Position numbers and translations under genes: made by a program
Assembly: GCA_900549225.1 (NCBI GenBank)
Contig: URNP01000005.1
Span: forward strand, 4,532 to 68,531
DNA from: an uncultured Eubacteriales bacterium
GTDB lineage: Bacteria > Bacillota > Clostridia > Christensenellales > CAG-917
Reading direction: 5' to 3'
Length of the DNA stretch: 64,000 nucleotides
Part shown: positions 25,193 to 52,538 of the stretch, one piece after another
How positions within the stretch are numbered: position 1 is the first letter of the stretch
How the letters are laid out: each line of letters begins with the position of its first letter
The notes under the pieces: model-generated
What the model was told of the DNA's origin: nothing
Database searches by the model: none
Seen by the model: only the letters and a program-made list of their open reading frames with translations

Positions 25193-25292
25193 ATGGAAGT
25201 AGTAGAAATTGCGCGTTAAGTGCCGTACGAACGTGGGGTGTCGGCGGACGAAGAGCGTTGCTCGCGGTGCAATATTCACTCCGGACTTCACA
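25193..25292 (+). promoter_or_regulatory. THF (tetrahydrofolate) class I riboswitch aptamer
   Basis: ggaAGUAGuagaaauuGCGCGUUAAGUG...GGGGUGUCGG...ACGAAG...CGCGGUGcaauauuCACUCCGGacuuc matches the conserved blocks of the THF-I aptamer as I recall it (AGUAG, GCGUUAAGUG, GGGAUGUCG, ACGAAG, CGCGGUG, CAUCCG). It lies between the promoter and folC. Confidence 0.8.
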
Positions 25293-25337: not shown

Positions 25338-26660
25338 TTGTTTTACGAAGAGGCATTGAACTATATCAAAAATATCGAAAGGTCGGGATCGGATTACGGC
25401 ATCGAAAGGATGCGTGAACTTCTCGATCTTCTCGGCGCACCCGACAAGCGTCTCAAATTCGTCCATATCGCAGGCACGAACGGGAAAGGCTCGGTGAGCG
25501 CGTATCTCACTTCCGTGCTTAAAGAGGCAGGGTACAATGTCGGCACTTACAATTCCCCCTCCGTTTTTCGCTACAACGAAAGATGGCTTATAAACGGCAC
25601 GCCGCTTTCTGACGACGACGTGGCAAAGTATCTCTCCATTGTCAGAGAGTGCGTTCAAAACGAGCAGACTTTGCGCGCCGCTTTAGGACTCGATGCGTTC
25701 AATCCTACCGCGTTTGAGATAGAAACCGCCGTTGCAATGCTTGCTTTTTTCGACAAGGAATGCGACGTGTGCGTGCTTGAAACGGGACTCGGCGGAAGAT
25801 GGGACGCAACCAACGCCATCGAGGACAAAGAACTTGCCGTCATCACGCCAATAGGACTTGACCACTGTGCGATTTTGGGCAACACGATAGAACAAATCGC
25901 AAGCGAAAAGGCGGCGATAACCAAAGACGTCGTCGTCACCTGCGAGCAACCGCCCGAGGTTATGCACGAGATAGAAAATCCGTTTTCGATGAAAGACGGC
26001 AAGAAGGTATACCGCAAAGCGAAAGTCGAAGTTTGCGAACGCGCTGAATTTTTGAGAGGCGATATCGGCGGACAAGCGTTCTTATACGATGGCAAAGAGT
26101 ACGAAATATCAATGCTCGGCAAGCATCAACTCGTCAACGCGTCGATAGCGATTTGCGCCGTTGAGCAACTGAGAAAAAAGCACTTCGATATAAGCGAAAA
26201 AGCGCTTAAAGACGGACTTAAAAACACGGTGTGGAAAGCAAGACTTCAAGTCGTCAAAAACGCAAAAGAGGACTTTAATATATCCGTTGCACAAGATAAA
26301 GTGCTTGTTTTTGACGGTTCGCACAATCCGCAAGGCGCAACCACTCTTGCGGAAGCAATCAAAGATTTATTCAAAGACAGGAGAGTACATCTCGTTTTGG
26401 GCATACTCAAAGACAAGGACGTAAAGGGCATTTGCGAGATTCTCGCACCGCTTGCAAACAGGATAACCTGCATCACGCCGCCCTCGCCCAGAGCAATGGA
26501 CAAAGAAGAATTATCGTCGATTGCCAAGCCGCTTTGCAAAGGCGAGTGCTGTACGTCGGACGATATAAAAACGGCAGTGCAAAACGCATTGAACGGCGAT
26601 TGCGATATCGTGATTCTTTGCGGTTCGCTCACGCTTTTTTCGGGATTGAAAAACGAATAA
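25338..26660 (+). CDS. folC: Bifunctional folylpolyglutamate synthase / dihydrofolate synthase
   Basis: aaggggg RBS, then TTG 25338 ([12 protein letters not shown]...). P-loop [11 protein letters not shown]. The longer ORF from 25209 would run through the riboswitch. Confidence 0.85.
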
Positions 26661-28861: not shown

Positions 28862-29042
28862 TTTTTCCGTTAAACGCCGTTTTGCAACCGTACAAAACGG
28901 CGCTTTCATATCATCGAGCAAATTTTCGGCGATTGCTTTTATTGCGTAGAAAAACGTGTCGAAAATATAATATTGCAACTTTGCATATTGTATGATAAAC
29001 TACACTCAACAGAGTTGCCACATTGCAACTTTCGGAAGAATT

Positions 29043-30010: not shown

Positions 30011-31702
30011 ATGATAAAAGTCTATATTGATAACAACGAAAAGCAAGTGAAAGAAGGCACGAGAAACAACGAAAAGCAAGTGAAAGAAGGCACGAGAGTG
30101 CTCGATTTGCTTCCAAAAGAAGACAAGTGCAAATACGTCGTTTGCAAAATCGGCTCTCAAATCAAAGAACTCAATCGCAAACTTTCAGCCCGTGACGATT
30201 CAAAGTCCATTGAATTTTTGGGCATTGAAAATTCCGAGGCGGTGAAGGCGTACGAAACCACGTTGAGATATATCGTCGCAATGGCGTTTCACAATCTTTA
30301 TCCGCAGGTACGCATACGTTTCGGCTACAATGCGTCGCGTTCGATTTTGTGCCAGATTCTCACCAAGGGCTTCAACGTATCCAAGGCAACCGACGAGATT
30401 CGCGCGGAAGTTGACAGAATCATCGGCGAGAATATGCCAATCGAGCGCATCACTGTTTCCACGGCGGAAGCGAGAAAGATTTACGAGCAGATGGGAAGAG
30501 GGGACAAACTCGATATGCTTGCCTATCGTCCCGAGAGCGAAGTGAACATTTACAAGTGCGGCGATTATTACGACTATTTGCACGCATATATGACGCCGTC
30601 CACGGGTTGCATATTCAGTTACAACCTTATGCCGTACAGCCCAGGCATCATAATTCAGTATCCGCGCTCCGAACTCAATGCGGAGATTCCCGAATTCGTT
30701 GAAGAAAGCACCTACGGTCGTACGTTGCAAAGGGCGACGACTTGGGCAAGCAAGACGGGCACGCAGACGGTCGTGGATATCAACAAAAAAGTGGAGAGCG
30801 GCAACGTGCTCGACTTCGTGCAAATGTGCGAGGCTCGTCAAAACGGAATGCTCGCAAAACTCGGCGACAGAATAGAAAACGATATCGAAAATATCCGTCT
30901 TATCTGCATTGCAGGTCCGAGTTCGAGCGGAAAGACCACGTTCTGCAACAGGGTTCGCATCGAACTCGTATCGCGCGGCATAAATCCCGTTATGATTTCT
31001 ATGGACGACTATTATCTCGAGCGCGAAAAAATCTGCAAGATGCAAGGCAAATCCGCAAACGAGGTTGACCTCGAACACGTCGATTGCCTCGATATCGAGC
31101 AATTCAACAAGGATCTTTTCGACCTCATCAACGGCGAAGAAGTCACGCTTCCGTGCTTCAATTTCGCAAAAGGCGTAAAGGAGAGAGGTCGCACAATCAG
31201 AGTTGACGAGCATAGTCCCATTATGATCGAGGGCATACACGCGCTCAACGAAAAACTTACTGCGTCCATTCCGAAGCACCAAAAATTCAAGATTTATATT
31301 GCGCCGCAACTTGCCGTCAACGTTGACGATCATTCTCCGCTCAGCACGACCGACTTGCGCCTCATACGCAGAATCGTCAGAGATATGCAGTTCAGAAATT
31401 ACCCTGCAAAGAACACCATCGATATGTGGCAAAGCGTGCGCAGCGGCGAATTTAAGTGGATATATCCGTGGCAAGAAGGCGTTGATTTCGTGTTCAATTC
31501 CGCGCTTGCTTACGAACTTTGCGTGCTGAAAAAACTTGCTTTGCCTGCACTCAAAGAGATAAAAGACACTGATCCGCAATTTATCGTGGCAAACAGACTC
31601 ATCAAATATCTCAAGTATTTCAAGACGATTGACGACGAGAGTCTGATTCCTTGCAACTCGCTGTTGAGAGAGTTCGTGGGCGGAAGTTGTTTCAACGTAT
31701 AA
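30011..31702 (+). CDS. TGS-domain / uridine-kinase-family nucleoside kinase
   Basis: N-terminal TGS-like IKVYIDN..KEGTRVLDLL. P-loop IAGPSSSGKTTFCNRV. Uridine-kinase-like C-terminal half. Confidence 0.8.
   Translation: MIKVYIDNNEKQVKEGTRNNEKQVKEGTRVLDLLPKEDKCKYVVCKIGSQIKELNRKLSARDDSKSIEFLGIENSEAVKAYETTLRYIVAMAFHNLYPQVRIRFGYNASRSILCQILTKGFNVSKATDEIRAEVDRIIGENMPIERITVSTAEARKIYEQMGRGDKLDMLAYRPESEVNIYKCGDYYDYLHAYMTPSTGCIFSYNLMPYSPGIIIQYPRSELNAEIPEFVEESTYGRTLQRATTWASKTGTQTVVDINKKVESGNVLDFVQMCEARQNGMLAKLGDRIENDIENIRLICIAGPSSSGKTTFCNRVRIELVSRGINPVMISMDDYYLEREKICKMQGKSANEVDLEHVDCLDIEQFNKDLFDLINGEEVTLPCFNFAKGVKERGRTIRVDEHSPIMIEGIHALNEKLTASIPKHQKFKIYIAPQLAVNVDDHSPLSTTDLRLIRRIVRDMQFRNYPAKNTIDMWQSVRSGEFKWIYPWQEGVDFVFNSALAYELCVLKKLALPALKEIKDTDPQFIVANRLIKYLKYFKTIDDESLIPCNSLLREFVGGSCFNV
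30032..30097 (+). repeat. Perfect 33-bp x2 in-frame tandem duplication inside the kinase gene
   Basis: aacaacgaaaagcaagtgaaagaaggcacgaga occurs at 30032-30064 and again at 30065-30097, duplicating NNEKQVKEGTR. Confidence 0.95.
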
Positions 31703-31800: not shown

Positions 31801-33132
31801 ATGTCAAAAATAGCGGTTATAGGTATGGGACAAGGCGGTATGGTTGCCGCCGTTCGTCTTGCAAAGCAAGGACACGAAGTCACGATTTTTGAGAAGAACA
31901 AACGCGGCGAAGTGAGTTACGACTGGCGCGACGACATTCGCGCAGACGTCTTTGAAGCGGCAGGACTTCCGATGCCTCCTAGTGACGTGTATTGCCAAAA
32001 GAGCAAGTGGCTTTTCGTGTCGCCAAACGAGGAGTATTCTTTGCCCGTACCGCCGTGTCCGCCTATGGAGGAAATCTCCGTTTATCGCACGAAACTTTCC
32101 GAGTATTTCGCAACGCTAGCGCAAGAGGCAGGGTGCAAACTCGTGTTTGAAACCGAGGTCAAATCGCTTGCCGTTCAAAACGACGCAATCGTCGGAGTAT
32201 GCGCCGAGGGCAAGGAGTAATTGTTCGACCTCGTCATAGACGCAAGCGGAATGCGCTCCCCGTTCAGAGCGCAAGTTCCCAACAAATTCGAGATTCAGGC
32301 GCAACCGAGCAGAAGTGACGTTATGTTCGGCTATCGCGCGTTTTTCAAGAGAGTGGAAGGCACGACTCCTCGCGATCCCCAAATAAATTCCACGCTCTAT
32401 CTCAAGCATCTCGGAAGCGTCGGTATAAGTTGGTGCAATCTCAACGAGGACAATCTCGTAGACGTGCTCATCGGCAGAGTCGGTGAACTTTCCGACAAAG
32501 AAATCGAGTATACCGTTGAGGCGCTCCGTGCAAGCAATCCTATTCTCGGCACTGAACTCGTCAGCGAAAAGAGGGTGGAAATCTGCTTGCGTATGTCGAT
32601 TGCAAGAGCGGTGGCAGACGGCTACGTCGCAATCGGCGACAGCGCGTTTATGACCATGCCTTTGATGGGTAGCGGCATCGAATCGTCTATGAAAGCAGGC
32701 AGAATGTTTGCCGACTTCATTGAAGAAAACGAAGTGCAAGAATTTACCGCAAAGAATATGTGGGGATTCTATCACAAGTATATGACCACGCTCGGCACGG
32801 ATTTTGCCTTCGTTGACGTACTCAAACGTTGGGCACTTTCGCTCGATCCCAAAACCATAGACTGGGTGTTTGGCGGAGGTCTTATCGAAAAGAGCGATTT
32901 GGCACTCGTCACCACCGATACGAGCGGCGAAAAGCCGAAGTTGAGCGCAAAGTCCATCGTCAAAAAAGTTTTCTTGCTTTTGGGACATTTCGGACTCGTG
33001 TGCAAAGCGGTCGGTTGCCTTACGAGGAGTTTGAAAGCAAAGAATATCGCAAAGAAAATACCTGCCGTTTACGACGAAAAGAAACTCGCCAAATGGACGA
33101 AGAAATACAACAGAATCATTTGCAAAAACTGA
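31801..33132 (+). pseudogene. FAD oxidoreductase paralog of 16052-17359 interrupted by one in-frame TAA (32218-32220)
   Basis: ORFs 31801-32220 and 32221-33132 share one frame and together align end-to-end with the 16052 product (VSYDWRDDI vs ISYDWHDDI; GYVAIGDSAFMTMPLMGSGIESSMKAG vs GYAAIGDAAFMTIPMIGSGIENSMKAA). The stop falls in GKE*LFDLVIDASG versus GEKFYADLVVDNSG. Confidence 0.8.
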
Positions 33133-34335: not shown

Positions 34336-34435
34336 TAAAAATAACGCTATCGCAATACAATATCTTGCGTTTTGACCGTTAAATTCACGCTCGACAACAC
34401 AATTCGTATTTTTGCAAAAAATTTGTCGAAATCGG

Positions 34436-34464
34436 TTGCGCGATTTTTTCGTTTGTGCTAACAT
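34436..34464 (+). promoter_or_regulatory. Promoter of the NCS2 permease-upp operon
   Basis: TTGCGC (34436-34441), 17-nt spacer ending in tgc, TAACAT (34459-34464). Confidence 0.5.
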
Positions 34465-34476
34465 ACTGTCAAATGT

Positions 34477-34598
34477 GAATCGGAGGGCAGTATGGTCAGT
34501 CGTCTTGTCAAACTCAAGAAAACGCTTTTTCTCGCAGCGGGTGTCGTTGCAAAAGTTGTTTTCTCTTCCTTTGACGAGTGCCTCATTCCCACCGATTC
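34477..34598 (+). promoter_or_regulatory. Unclassified structured 5' leader element (candidate riboswitch/attenuator aptamer)
   Basis: Closing helix gaatcggaggg (34477-87) / cccaccgattc (34588-98), 10 of 11 bp. Nested helices are gtcaaa/tttgac, aagaaaac/gttttctctt and GCAGCG-ggtgt-CGTTGC (with a G.U pair). Confidence 0.5.
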
Positions 34599-34614
34599 GA
34601 TAATTGCCTAACGT

Positions 34615-34642
34615 AGATGTCCCAAGCGGGCATCTTTTTTTT
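34615..34642 (+). terminator. Intrinsic terminator inside the leader, ~60 nt before the permease start
   Basis: gatg(t)ccc aagc gggcatc stem followed by T8 (34635-34642). Confidence 0.75.
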
Positions 34643-34701
34643 GCCCTCGAGGGTGTTAGGCTGTGAGAAGAGAACGATAAAAATATATAGGAGAAAGACC
34701 A

Positions 34702-36426
34702 ATGTCAAAAAACCAACTCGTTTACGACGTCAATGACAAGCCTGCATTCGGCAAAAACCTAGTGTTTGCATTCCAACAAGTGCTTGCAATCATGGCTGCA
34801 ACCATTGCAGTTCCGACCATTATCGGGATTCCCACACAGATTCCTGCCGCAATACTCGGCGCAGGACTCGGCACGATAGTGTATCTTCTTTTCACAAAAT
34901 TCAAGAGCCCGGTCATCATTTCGAGTTCGTTCGCATTTTTGAGTTCGCTCTCGACGGCGCTTTGTTTCGGATATTGCGGAATCATTCTCGGCGGTATCCT
35001 TGCAGGACTCGTATACGTCGTTCTGGCGCTGATAATCAAGTTTGCGGGCAGCAAATGGGTTTCAAAACTCATGCCTCCCGTCATCATCGGACCAACCGTC
35101 GCGCTCATCGGCCTTTCCTTGGCAGGCAGCGCAATGGGCGACATTGTTAAGGCAAGCGGCGCAACCGTCAACGCAAGTTACAACCTCGTTGCGCTCTTGT
35201 GCGGACTTGTCACGCTCATCACGATTTGCATCTGCTCCACTCAAAAGAAATTCAAAATGGGACGTCTTATCCCGTTCATTCTCGGCATTGCGGCAGGATA
35301 CGCCGTAGCGGCGTTCTTCTCGATTTTCGGATATGCGTGCCACGTCGAATATCTCAAGATAGTCAACTGGCAACCCCTCGTGGACAACTTTGCGGCACTC
35401 GGCGATTCAACCGCAAGCGTCGGCGCAAAATTCCAATCCTTCCTCAACTATCCCGACTTCGCTCTCATTGAAGCCATCAAAGAACTCGTCACGGGCAACG
35501 TCAGCGAAGCAGTCAAGACCGCAACCAAAGGCGTTGCAACCACGATCACGTGGGCAGGCGTCGGTGAAGTCGTGCTCGCATTCGTACCCGTCGCGCTTGT
35601 CGTTTTTGCAGAACATATCGCAGACCACAAGAACCTCGGCTCTATCATCGGCCGCGACCTCGTCGAAGGCGAACCCGGTCTTTGCAGAACTCTCCTCGGT
35701 GACGGCGTAGGCTCTATGGTCGGCACGGTGTTCGGCATTTGCCCCAACACCACTTACGGTGAATCCGTCGGTTGCGTGGCAATCACCAAAAACGCGTCCG
35801 TATCCACGATTTTCCTTGCGGCTTGCATGTGCATCGTGCTCTCGTTCATAAGTCCTCTTATGGCGTTGCTCCGCACGATTCCCGCTTGCGTAATGGGCGG
35901 CGTATGCCTCACTCTTTACGGTTTCATCGCAGTCAGCGGTCTCAAAATGTTCAAAGACATCAACCTCGGCGACAACAAAAATCTCTTCACGGTATCCACG
36001 ATTCTCATCGCAGGTATCGGCGGACTCTCTATTAAGATTCCGTACAAGATTCTCACGAGCGACGTTATCGGTCAAACCATCAAAGACGGCGCAATCGTGG
36101 ACGTAATTCTCACCCCTGCGGGAACGGTGGATAAGACCATCACCATCACTTCCATCGCAACCGCGCTCGTGCTCGGTATCATCATACACGCGATTATCGA
36201 CGCAATCGAAAAGAAACAGGGCGGCGACGGCAACGAAGAAGAAGCCACGCATGAACCTCAAAGCCTTATCACAGGCGCAGTCGCACCCAACGCAACGTTT
36301 GAGGTCGGCGTAGACGTCGTCAAAGCGACAGAGGAAAAAGAAAGAGAAGAAGAGGTCGTCGAAGAACTCCGTGAAGAAGAAAAAGAAATCGAAAACGCTC
36401 AATCTTCCGATCGCGACGATAAATAA
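34702..36426 (+). CDS. NCS2-family nucleobase (uracil/xanthine-type) permease with acidic C-terminal extension
   Basis: RBS taggaga. Polytopic NCS2-like sequence (GLGTIVYLLFT..., NTTYGESVGCVAITK). Tail sequence EEKEREEEVVEELREEEKEIEN. Confidence 0.8.
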   Translation: MSKNQLVYDVNDKPAFGKNLVFAFQQVLAIMAATIAVPTIIGIPTQIPAAILGAGLGTIVYLLFTKFKSPVIISSSFAFLSSLSTALCFGYCGIILGGILAGLVYVVLALIIKFAGSKWVSKLMPPVIIGPTVALIGLSLAGSAMGDIVKASGATVNASYNLVALLCGLVTLITICICSTQKKFKMGRLIPFILGIAAGYAVAAFFSIFGYACHVEYLKIVNWQPLVDNFAALGDSTASVGAKFQSFLNYPDFALIEAIKELVTGNVSEAVKTATKGVATTITWAGVGEVVLAFVPVALVVFAEHIADHKNLGSIIGRDLVEGEPGLCRTLLGDGVGSMVGTVFGICPNTTYGESVGCVAITKNASVSTIFLAACMCIVLSFISPLMALLRTIPACVMGGVCLTLYGFIAVSGLKMFKDINLGDNKNLFTVSTILIAGIGGLSIKIPYKILTSDVIGQTIKDGAIVDVILTPAGTVDKTITITSIATALVLGIIIHAIIDAIEKKQGGDGNEEEATHEPQSLITGAVAPNATFEVGVDVVKATEEKEREEEVVEELREEEKEIENAQSSDRDDK

Positions 36427-36472: not shown

Positions 36473-37111
36473 ATGAAAGAATACGACAACGTGCACATTC
36501 TCGACCACCCGCTCATCAGACACAAAGTGGCAATCATCAGAGATAAGAACACCACGACCAAGCAATTCAGAGAGGTCATCGGCGAAATCGCAACTCTTAT
36601 GGCGTTCGAGGCGTTCAAGGACGTGCCCACTCAAACCATAACCGTAGAAACTCCGCTCGAAACGGTTGAACAGACCGTCGTCAAAGAAAACTCAATCGCA
36701 ATCGTGCCCATTCTCCGTGCAGGACTCGGCATGGTTGACGGCGTCCTCACGCTTTTCCCCGCCGCAAAGGTCGGACATATCGGTATGTACCGCAACGAAG
36801 AAACTCTCGAACCTCAAGAGTATTATTGCAAGTTGCCCCAAGGCATCGAGGAGAAAGTCGTTATGCTCGTCGATCCTATGCTCGCAACGGGCGGTAGTGC
36901 CTGCGATGCAATCGCACTTCTCAAAAAGCGCGGTTGCAAACATATCAAATTCCTCGCAATCATCGGCGCGCCCGAAGGCGTTGAAAAAGTCCACTCCGAA
37001 CATCCCGACGTAGAAGTTTACGTCTCGACTCTCGATCGTCAACTCAACGAGAACGGGTATATTTTGCCGGGGTTGGGGGATGCGGGAGATCGCATCTTCG
37101 GCACAAAATAA
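36473..37111 (+). CDS. upp: Uracil phosphoribosyltransferase
   Basis: [38 protein letters not shown] and [16 protein letters not shown]. Confidence 0.92.
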
Positions 37112-45578: not shown

Positions 45579-45821
45579 AAACCTCTCCCTTAATTGAGAT
45601 AAATATATTATACAATACAAGTGTTTTTCATTTCAATATGCGATTTCGACAAAACCCGCTATGAAAATCGACAATTTACGACATTTGTATCAATAAAATC
45701 CGAGCCTTTCAATCTTTGATTTTCTCTTTTACAGCGAAATATAATGTGCTATAATACGAGCGAAAACAAAAACAAATTTTTCAAAAGAAAGGAAAATCAC
45801 AAATTTAAACACAAAAAACAT

Positions 45822-52451: not shown

Positions 52452-52538
52452 GCGGACATGGCGGAATTGGCAGACGCGCAAGATTCAGGTTCTTGTGAGC
52501 ACTAGTTCATGCAGGTTCAAGTCCTGTTGTCCGCACCA
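52452..52538 (+). tRNA. tRNA-Leu(CAG): tRNA-Leu, anticodon CAG, type II (long variable arm), CCA encoded
   Basis: Acceptor GCGGACA/TGTCCGC, anticodon stem CAAGA/TCTTG with loop TTCAGGT, T-loop GGTTCAAGTCC, discriminator A plus CCA. Confidence 0.92.

Follow-up and report, generated by a model that had tools for sequence, protein, structure and literature searches.

The question raised by this locus is how a two-gene operon for uracil uptake and salvage is controlled by a leader that matches no known regulatory RNA. The locus lies in a 64,000-nucleotide (nt) stretch of contig URNP01000005.1 (assembly GCA_900549225.1) from an uncultured Eubacteriales bacterium of the Christensenellales, hereafter the window, in which the leader precedes a gene for an NCS2-type permease and upp, the gene for uracil phosphoribosyltransferase. 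An initial annotation, made from the letters alone, had described an unclassified structured leader that was a candidate riboswitch or attenuator. It is the attenuator half of that description that holds: a conserved terminator separates a conserved promoter from permease-upp, and reading by eye of the 59 nt that follow the T-run, up to the permease ATG, showed no plausible internal promoter. We propose, at a probability of about 0.55, that the leader is a ribosome-mediated transcription attenuator of the pyrBI/pyrE occlusion type, probably tuned by polymerase pausing that depends on uridine triphosphate (UTP).

Region 34436-34701 reads as a promoter, a leader of ~230 nt, a hairpin terminator ending in eight T residues (T8), 59 nt, and then the permease ATG. 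The features on which the argument turns are the following.

34436-34464, + strand: promoter, with -35 hexamer TTGCGC (34436-41), 17-nt spacer and extended -10 TGcTAACAT (34456-64).
34482-34486, + strand: Shine-Dalgarno (SD) sequence GGAGG, 5 nt 5' of ATG 34492.
34492-34611, + strand: upstream open reading frame (uORF) of 39 codons plus TAA (34609-11), peptide MVSRLVKLKKTLFLAAGVVAKVVFSSFDECLIPTDSIIA, recognized by frame conservation.
34534-34550, + strand: apical hairpin GCAGCG-GGTGT-CGTTGC inside the uORF, proposed pause hairpin, recognized by covariation.
34556-34573, + strand: pyrimidine- and T-rich tract TTGTTTTCTCTTCCTTTG with TTGTTT (fitting TTNTTT), proposed UTP-sensitive or NusG-type pause region, recognized by conservation.
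34612-34614, + strand: 3-nt spacer CGT between the uORF stop and the terminator stem.
34615-34642, + strand: intrinsic terminator with 8-bp stem AGATGTCC/GGGCATCT, loop CAAGC and T8, found by scan, by fold and in homologs.
34702-36426, + strand: NCS2 uracil/xanthine-type permease, 574 amino acids, first regulated gene (Pfam PF00860).
36473-37111, + strand: upp, uracil phosphoribosyltransferase, 212 amino acids, second regulated gene (NCBIfam equivalog).

The only ORF noticed initially, 34412-34603, was the wrong one; the relevant ORF is in a different frame and runs from ATG 34492 to TAA 34611. The conserved GGAGG, the ATG and the 39-codon frame were already apparent when the window was first aligned with six related leaders. 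The full set contains 24 distinct leaders: the window, six from species-representative genomes, 14 from metagenomes and three obtained via a protein collection. The metagenome leaders came from a DNA-pattern scan that returned mostly chance matches, and an nhmmer filter left 16 true leaders, 14 of them distinct. GGAG or GGAGG followed by ATG is present in all 24 leaders, and the uORF frame is open in every one of them; the other two frames are open in 8/24 and 4/24. Four independent indels inside the uORF are each 3 nt long, and the indels just 5' of the ATG are 2, 4 or 6 nt. In the public protein collection the peptide has been annotated as a gene product and makes up 25 unnamed clusters; its gene invariably has a DUF1294 gene on one side and permease-upp on the other. 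Translation of the uORF from ATG 34492 is predicted on these sequence grounds. Selection at the amino acid level is weak: the ratio of nonsynonymous to synonymous change (pN/pS) is 0.4-0.6, and variable columns fall on the three codon positions in the numbers 25, 21 and 27 of 40. What is conserved is chiefly the existence of the frame and the position of its end.

The terminator hairpin with T8 (34615-34642), which the initial annotation had placed about 60 nt upstream of the permease, is present; its stem pairs in every homolog (100%), and one of its base pairs shows a compensatory change (U-A/A-U). It was found both by a terminator scan and by the fold, with the stem at 34615-34635 and the T8 run extending to 34642. 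The spacer between the uORF stop and the stem is 3 nt in 23 of the 24 homologs and 4 nt in the other. The 64-kb window contains 98 terminator-like sites, and the one in this leader is alone in adjoining an ORF of at least 12 codons with an SD and an ATG. Measurements in Escherichia coli show that translating ribosomes nearly abolish the activity of a terminator placed a few base pairs 3' of their stop codon (PMC4824070) and that this repression fades at ~20-30 bp (PMC4824070, PMC5021804). Amino acid attenuators hold more than 20 bp between leader stop and terminator and so avoid direct occlusion (PMC4824070), and the pyrBI attenuator employs direct ribosome occlusion with timing by pause sites (PMC4824070, PMC5021804).

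The structure that the initial annotation drew for the leader, a long-range helix (34477-87 with 34588-98) enclosing three nested helices, is conserved in one part only. All four helices can be drawn in the minimum free energy fold of the window sequence, and one of the nested ones, GCAGCG/CGTTGC, covaries; the other two nested ones, GTCAAA/TTTGAC and AAGAAAAC/GTTTTCTCTT, are paired in ~75% of cells of a 21-sequence alignment and do not covary. The long-range helix is not conserved, with 65-73% of cells paired, many pairs broken and no compensatory change. On the same alignment the full structure pairs 74.0% of cells, compared with 72.8% in column shuffles. The minimum free energy of the leader, -70.6 kcal/mol, corresponds to z = -2.27 against dinucleotide shuffles, of which 5/200 fold as well.

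The covarying hairpin, 34534-50, is paired in 98.7-99.2% of cells and is recovered by RNAalifold. Two of its six pairs show compensatory change (A-U/G-C and G-C/A-U) and three show one-sided wobble changes; because the amino acids of the overlapped codons vary freely, the hairpin is conserved at the RNA level. Within the T-rich tract downstream, GTTGYGTTTTCTT is conserved, and no homolog has an indel between the tract and the hairpin. Of the family members, 17/24 contain a strict TTNTTT, as do 7/8 other leaders of the uORF type, where 0.2-0.3 occurrences per leader would be expected from a background of 2.4-3.5 per kb. The string GTTGTTTTCTCTT recurs in a distant permease locus (L021) in a different reading frame, which, together with the weak constraint on the peptide, points to an RNA- or DNA-level function of the tract. 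A hairpin with TTNTTT forms the NusG-dependent pause module of the Bacillus subtilis vmlR leader, which also combines a uORF with a terminator (PMC9226507), and on sequence grounds the hairpin and T-rich tract described here may likewise be a site of polymerase pausing.

No conserved antiterminator was found in the leader. The candidate pairing between the T-rich tract and the 5' arm of the terminator is paired in 90% of cells; it lacks covariation and is broken where the terminator covaries. RNAalifold also proposed that the tract pairs with the permease ribosome-binding site (13 pairs, 97.8% paired, one covarying pair). This was rejected as evidence because the duplex energy is no better than that of composition-matched shuffles (12 leaders, z from -2.0 to +0.4). 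A clamp helix around the terminator, GCCUAAC/GUUAGGC, is weak, with 64% of cells paired.

The same design is found at other permease loci. We compared 80 loci encoding relatives of the permease with 45-92% identity, and 40 related loci were searched with Rfam. The loci nearest to the window carry the same uORF peptide family, and distant loci carry unrelated short uORFs of 24-37 codons with strong SD sequences (L008, L010/L011, L012/L014, L013, L021 and L039). The unrelated uORFs stop 0-5 nt before an intrinsic terminator, with the stop of L013 lying inside the terminator loop. At least six unrelated uORFs 5' of orthologous permeases in other Clostridia share the stop-at-terminator geometry, and this suggests that the device has either been invented repeatedly or turns over rapidly. 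T makes up 0.40-0.53 of the 45 nt that precede the terminator in five of the unrelated uORF leaders, versus 0.19-0.31 of their loci. The only PyrR sites found by Rfam among the related loci are those of L007 (339-447, 56.1 bits) and L057 (2325-2416, 55.3 bits; gathering score 54), each ~580 nt 5' of the orthologous permease gene. The size of the gap suggests that the intervening gene is probably pyrR, in operons of the pyrR-pyrP type. The presence of these sites indicates that the permease family belongs to pyrimidine-repressed regulons.

In the mechanism we propose, transcription would begin ~20 nt 5' of the SD and ATG 34492, probably near A34471-72 as judged by spacing, and the 39-codon uORF would be translated while the polymerase is still on the leader. 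A ribosome at the last codons or at the stop would cover the 5' arm of the terminator, because TAA 34609-11 is only 3 nt away; the hairpin would be blocked, and transcription would read through into the uracil permease gene and upp. If the ribosome lagged, or if the uORF were not translated, the hairpin would form and transcription would stop at T8. The ribosome itself would be the antiterminator, given the 3-nt spacer, the lack of a conserved antiterminator and the lack of tandem regulatory codons. The regulated variable would then be the distance between the polymerase and the lead ribosome, set by pausing at hairpin 34534-50 and the T-rich tract 34556-73 (TTGTTT), ~6-12 nt after the hairpin. 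At low UTP the polymerase would dwell at the T-rich tract and at T8, the ribosome would catch up and the salvage genes would be on; at high UTP the polymerase would run ahead and terminate. UTP is the likely regulatory signal by analogy with pyrBI and pyrE, and from the function of the genes and the PyrR sites of the orthologs. UTP supply would be the most economical signal because pause escape and T8 synthesis both consume UTP and the operon serves uracil uptake and salvage.

The design resembles that of pyrBI of E. coli and Salmonella, where the leader ORF pyrL is translated behind the polymerase and the ribosome, rather than an antiterminator helix, prevents formation of the terminator (PMC5021804, PMC4824070). 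In pyrBI, U-rich pause sites 5' of the attenuator time the coupling, as pausing is proposed to do here. Turnbough and Switzer reportedly described in 2008 that these U-rich pauses are UTP-sensitive. Both operons belong to pyrimidine metabolism, and pyrBI is induced at low UTP, as we suppose for permease-upp. The pyrL frame runs through its terminator, whereas the uORF of the window ends 3 nt before it. The two also differ in their targets, which are salvage and uptake here and de novo synthesis in pyrBI, in the host, which belongs here to the Bacillota and the Clostridia, and in the presence in the window leader of a covarying hairpin with a TTNTTT-type tract. Searches of Pfam-A with eight leader peptides and of NCBIfam with five, at E<=10, matched no leader-peptide family, and the leader is therefore regarded as an analog rather than a homolog of PyrL; the lone match was a sub-threshold one to Imm74 for the peptide of L010 (E = 0.042, 14.4 bits; cut-off 27.1). 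In E. coli rph-pyrE, an upstream frame ends just before the attenuator, and read-through is UTP-sensitive via the closeness of ribosome and polymerase. The upstream frame of pyrE is the full-size gene rph, in contrast to a dedicated leader of 37-40 codons with its own promoter in leaders of the window type.

Other comparisons come from Gram-positive bacteria. The vmlR and tlrB leaders of B. subtilis also combine a short uORF, a pause hairpin with a NusG TTNTTT motif and an intrinsic terminator 5' of the gene (PMC9226507). Unlike the window leader, they sense ribosome-targeting antibiotics and employ a tiny uORF far from the terminator with an anti-antiterminator/antiterminator switch; in the window leader the uORF lies directly next to the terminator, and the search for a conserved antiterminator was negative. 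The window leader has no homology to the pyrBI, pyrE or vmlR-type leaders. The usual control of pyrP and uracil permease genes in Gram-positive bacteria is the PyrR attenuator (RF00515), which likewise acts through a leader terminator. The PyrR attenuator differs in being dependent on a protein with a defined binding loop. No Rfam 15 family, including the purine riboswitch RF00167 and RF00515, was found in the leader when the whole window was searched at gathering score, and a search of 34380-34760 at E<=10 gave only chance-level matches to PsrR1 and UPD-PKc (16-17 bits; thresholds 40-42). These searches confirm the initial impression that neither a purine-riboswitch core nor a PyrR loop is present. 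In the literature searched, we found no description of a uORF or leader-peptide attenuator 5' of a uracil permease gene or upp in Firmicutes.

Several observations weigh against attenuation by occlusion and UTP-dependent pausing. The sense-strand purine content of the genes in the window is 0.529, which is typical of Bacillota, and the Bacillota purine pattern class is one in which the polymerase outruns the ribosomes (PMC13323073); tight coupling would therefore not be the default and would need the proposed local pause. Strict TTNTTT is absent from 7/24 family members. T enrichment in the window family is modest, with T making up 0.33 of the uORF and 0.31 of the last 45 nt, compared with 0.25 of the locus; A-runs and T-runs are of similar frequency in the uORF, so that specificity for UTP is tentative. 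In addition, FSSFDEC and the peptide ending [S/T]-x-I-A-stop look in part as if selected at the amino acid level, and a purely RNA-level model leaves them unexplained. The final 12 nt of the uORF, ATAATTGCCTAA (34600-34611, the last three sense codons and the stop), are identical in the uORF ends of L010/L011, synonymous positions included, and this is the sole leader stretch still identical in that distant subfamily; its identity is not accounted for by occlusion alone. A blastn comparison of L010/L011 with the window leader found only a 16-nt stretch in common. A hidden Markov model of the peptide, applied to every short frame in the 80 loci, matched only the nine leaders from which it was built, and thus does not independently place L010/L011 in the family.

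The conserved residues could point to a different sensor, the nascent peptide itself. The conserved residues of its C-terminus, alone or together with a small pyrimidine ligand in the exit tunnel, would slow release at TAA in the manner of TnaC or SpeFL, and the stalled ribosome would mask the terminator. It is in keeping with this that [S/T]-x-I-A-stop is found in the main family and in L010/L011 and is written with five different Ser/Thr codons (ACA, TCA, TCG, AGT and TCT), that KLKK and FSSFDEC are nearly invariant across 28 peptides, and that the final 12 nt are the only stretch common with L010/L011. We nevertheless consider a peptide sensor quite unlikely, since overall pN/pS and the near-flat variability over codon positions do not favor it, six uORF leaders of the same geometry end unrelatedly (LSFSS, DFPQ, NEEV, RFQK, FCFL and IFID), several residues counted as conserved fall on RNA elements that are themselves conserved, namely the GTTGC arm of the hairpin and the T-rich tract, and searches of Pfam and NCBIfam revealed no resemblance to any known arrest or leader peptide. 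A narrower version is likewise quite unlikely: FSSFDEC...[S/T]-x-I-A-stop would be a pyrimidine-responsive arrest peptide in which tunnel-bound uracil, uridine or a nucleotide blocks release at TAA, holds the ribosome over the terminator and so induces the operon. If true, it would be a TnaC-like nucleobase sensor and the first arrest peptide for a nucleobase. The signal may also lack metabolite specificity altogether. The leader could contain a constitutive partial terminator, a general gauge of translation (growth rate, guanosine tetraphosphate or antibiotics), or a functional 39-amino-acid protein with its own terminator. Occlusion geometry is sensitive to anything that alters the speed of the ribosome relative to that of the polymerase (PMC4824070), uORF-terminator leaders of Bacillota are known to sense translation inhibitors (PMC9226507), and the peptide has a hydrophobic core and is called as a gene in the 25 clusters. 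Of the alternatives this is the least improbable, yet it is unlikely: the design recurs specifically 5' of orthologous uracil permeases with unrelated peptides, which argues for a cis-regulatory role tied to the operon rather than a trans-acting protein, the permease depends on read-through, and the enrichment of T-rich sequence and TTNTTT fits a nucleotide-linked signal.

Two further alternatives place the switch in RNA structure. In attenuation of the trp type, a ribosome stalled early (AAG-AAA-AC) would free a T-rich segment to pair with the 5' arm of the terminator, and either full translation or no translation would lead to termination. Three segments, AAGAAAAC (34517-24), GUUUUCUCUU (34557-66) and the purine-rich 5' arm GUAGAUGUCC, are indeed mutually complementary in series; the 2:3 pairing is present in 90% of cells of 13 homologs, and RNAalifold on the leader alone retains the 1:2 pairing. 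The trp, his and leu attenuators also have a short translated leader ORF 5' of an intrinsic terminator, as is predicted here. They are characterized by tandem codons, mutually exclusive 1:2, 2:3 and 3:4 helices and a stop more than 20 nt from the terminator (PMC4824070), none of which is seen in this leader. Neither the 1:2 nor the 2:3 pairing covaries, and in 6/13 sequences the latter is disrupted at the very terminator position that covaries; there are no tandem regulatory codons and no conserved run of codons for a single amino acid; the pairing is absent from uORF leaders with pyrimidine-rich terminator 5' arms (L012 and L008). With the stop 3 nt from the terminator, a finishing ribosome would block termination, which is the opposite of trp logic and contrasts with the >20 nt of amino acid attenuators (PMC4824070). 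We regard a trp-type switch as improbable. A riboswitch or protein-binding RNA, in which the rod-like fold 34477-34598 would bind a metabolite or protein and control the terminator with the ORF incidental, is very improbable. The window sequence does form a long nested hairpin, the apical hairpin covaries, and some synonymous sites are invariant, for example AAACTCAAGAAA. Set against these are the lack of an Rfam match even at E<=10, a fold z-score of just -2.27, outer helices that are not conserved, and a whole structure hardly better paired than its shuffles. The sequence is organized as a reading frame, and the always-open frame with its in-frame-only indels shows selection on translation. 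Related species replace the whole element with unrelated short ORFs; a ligand-binding aptamer would not be so replaceable, and on all these grounds together the riboswitch half of the initial description is unsupported. We regard the trp-like, riboswitch and nonspecific or constitutive models as each less likely than ribosome occlusion.

The promoter-like TTGCGC-17-TAACAT and the ~230-nt leader of the initial annotation are both present in the window, and the promoter is nearly invariant among 21-24 homologous leaders (alignments A5 and A6). A TG lies two bases 5' of the -10 hexamer TAACAT (34459-64). A generic promoter scan did not list the TTGCGC/TAACAT site, because TTGCGC agrees with TTGACA at only 3/6 positions. 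Three more features of the region are the following.

34422-34435, + strand: conserved box TTTGTCGAAATCGG directly 5' of the -35 hexamer, nearly invariant in A5 and A6.
34643-34654, + strand: small GC hairpin GCCCTCGAGGGT directly 3' of the T-run, read from A5 and A6.
34690-34704, + strand: permease ribosome-binding site GGAGAAAGAC and ATG 34702, invariant in homologs.

An TGTCGAAA(A)T box is found ~10-15 nt 5' of the -35 in several unrelated promoter-like sites. In the window these boxes are at 34424-34431 (+), 28957-28964 (+) and 45644-45651 (-), and further loci with the box are L013, L015, L017, L019, L068, L069 and L077. A role of the TTTGTCGAAA box as a pyrimidine operator was ruled out, since the same box occurs 5' of unrelated promoters; the TGTCGAAA box appears to be an upstream promoter element peculiar to the lineage or the site of a general factor, and is not operon-specific. 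The GC hairpin after the T-run was also seen in L001-L006, L120, L124, L200-L202, L010-L012 and L021, sometimes overlapping the T-run. Its sequences are clade-specific and hairpin potential is kept (GTGCC..GGCAC, GCGC..GCGC, GCGCTCA..TGAGCGC and TTTGCCCTCGAGGGCAAA), as judged by reading alignments that are poor at that position.

Of the two regulated genes, upp matches the NCBIfam equivalog NF001097/TIGR01091 over its cut-off (295 bits). The best NCBIfam matches of the permease are ncs2 and uracil permease, both under the curated cut-offs. The permease has a C-terminal acidic low-complexity tail, EEKEREEEVVEELREEEKEIENAQSSDRDDK (36250-36426, +), and its close homologs vary in length from 533 to 587 amino acids. 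Upstream, at 31801-33132 (+), an in-frame TAA (32218-32220) divides a gene resembling those of flavin adenine dinucleotide (FAD)-dependent oxidoreductases into ORFs of 139 and 303 amino acids. The ortholog in L202, 83% identical, is intact at 444 amino acids and has Leu at the position of the TAA, which could be a nonsense mutation, mark a pseudogene or be an assembly error. A 563-amino-acid uridine-kinase-like ORF (30011-31702), whose PRK domain was assigned via the L202 ortholog, begins with an exact tandem repeat of NNEKQVKEGTR (two copies; 33-nt direct repeat, 30032-30097, +). The Rfam search of the whole window at gathering score gave just two features, both outside the leader: a tetrahydrofolate (THF) riboswitch at 25196-25289 (+; 55 bits, gathering score 36), ~120 nt 5' of a 416-amino-acid ORF (25410-26660), and a tRNA gene with a long variable arm at 52452-52535 (+; 53 bits).

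The design is most likely one that is known from pyrimidine genes of E. coli and has not been described for this group of gut Clostridia. It is of interest for the host phylum, for the target operon and for its apparent repeated emergence. A practical corollary is that a search for short frames should precede any designation of an orphan structured leader as a riboswitch candidate. If our proposal is correct, uracil uptake and salvage in gut Clostridia of the Christensenellales type are controlled neither by PyrR nor by a riboswitch, and the sensor is the distance between ribosome and polymerase. Sensing of that distance is textbook knowledge for enterobacterial pyrBI and pyrE, and would be unexpected in Bacillota, where the polymerase is thought to outrun the ribosomes. 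The hairpin and TTNTTT module would represent a concrete way in which coupling could be locally enforced in an organism with runaway transcription.

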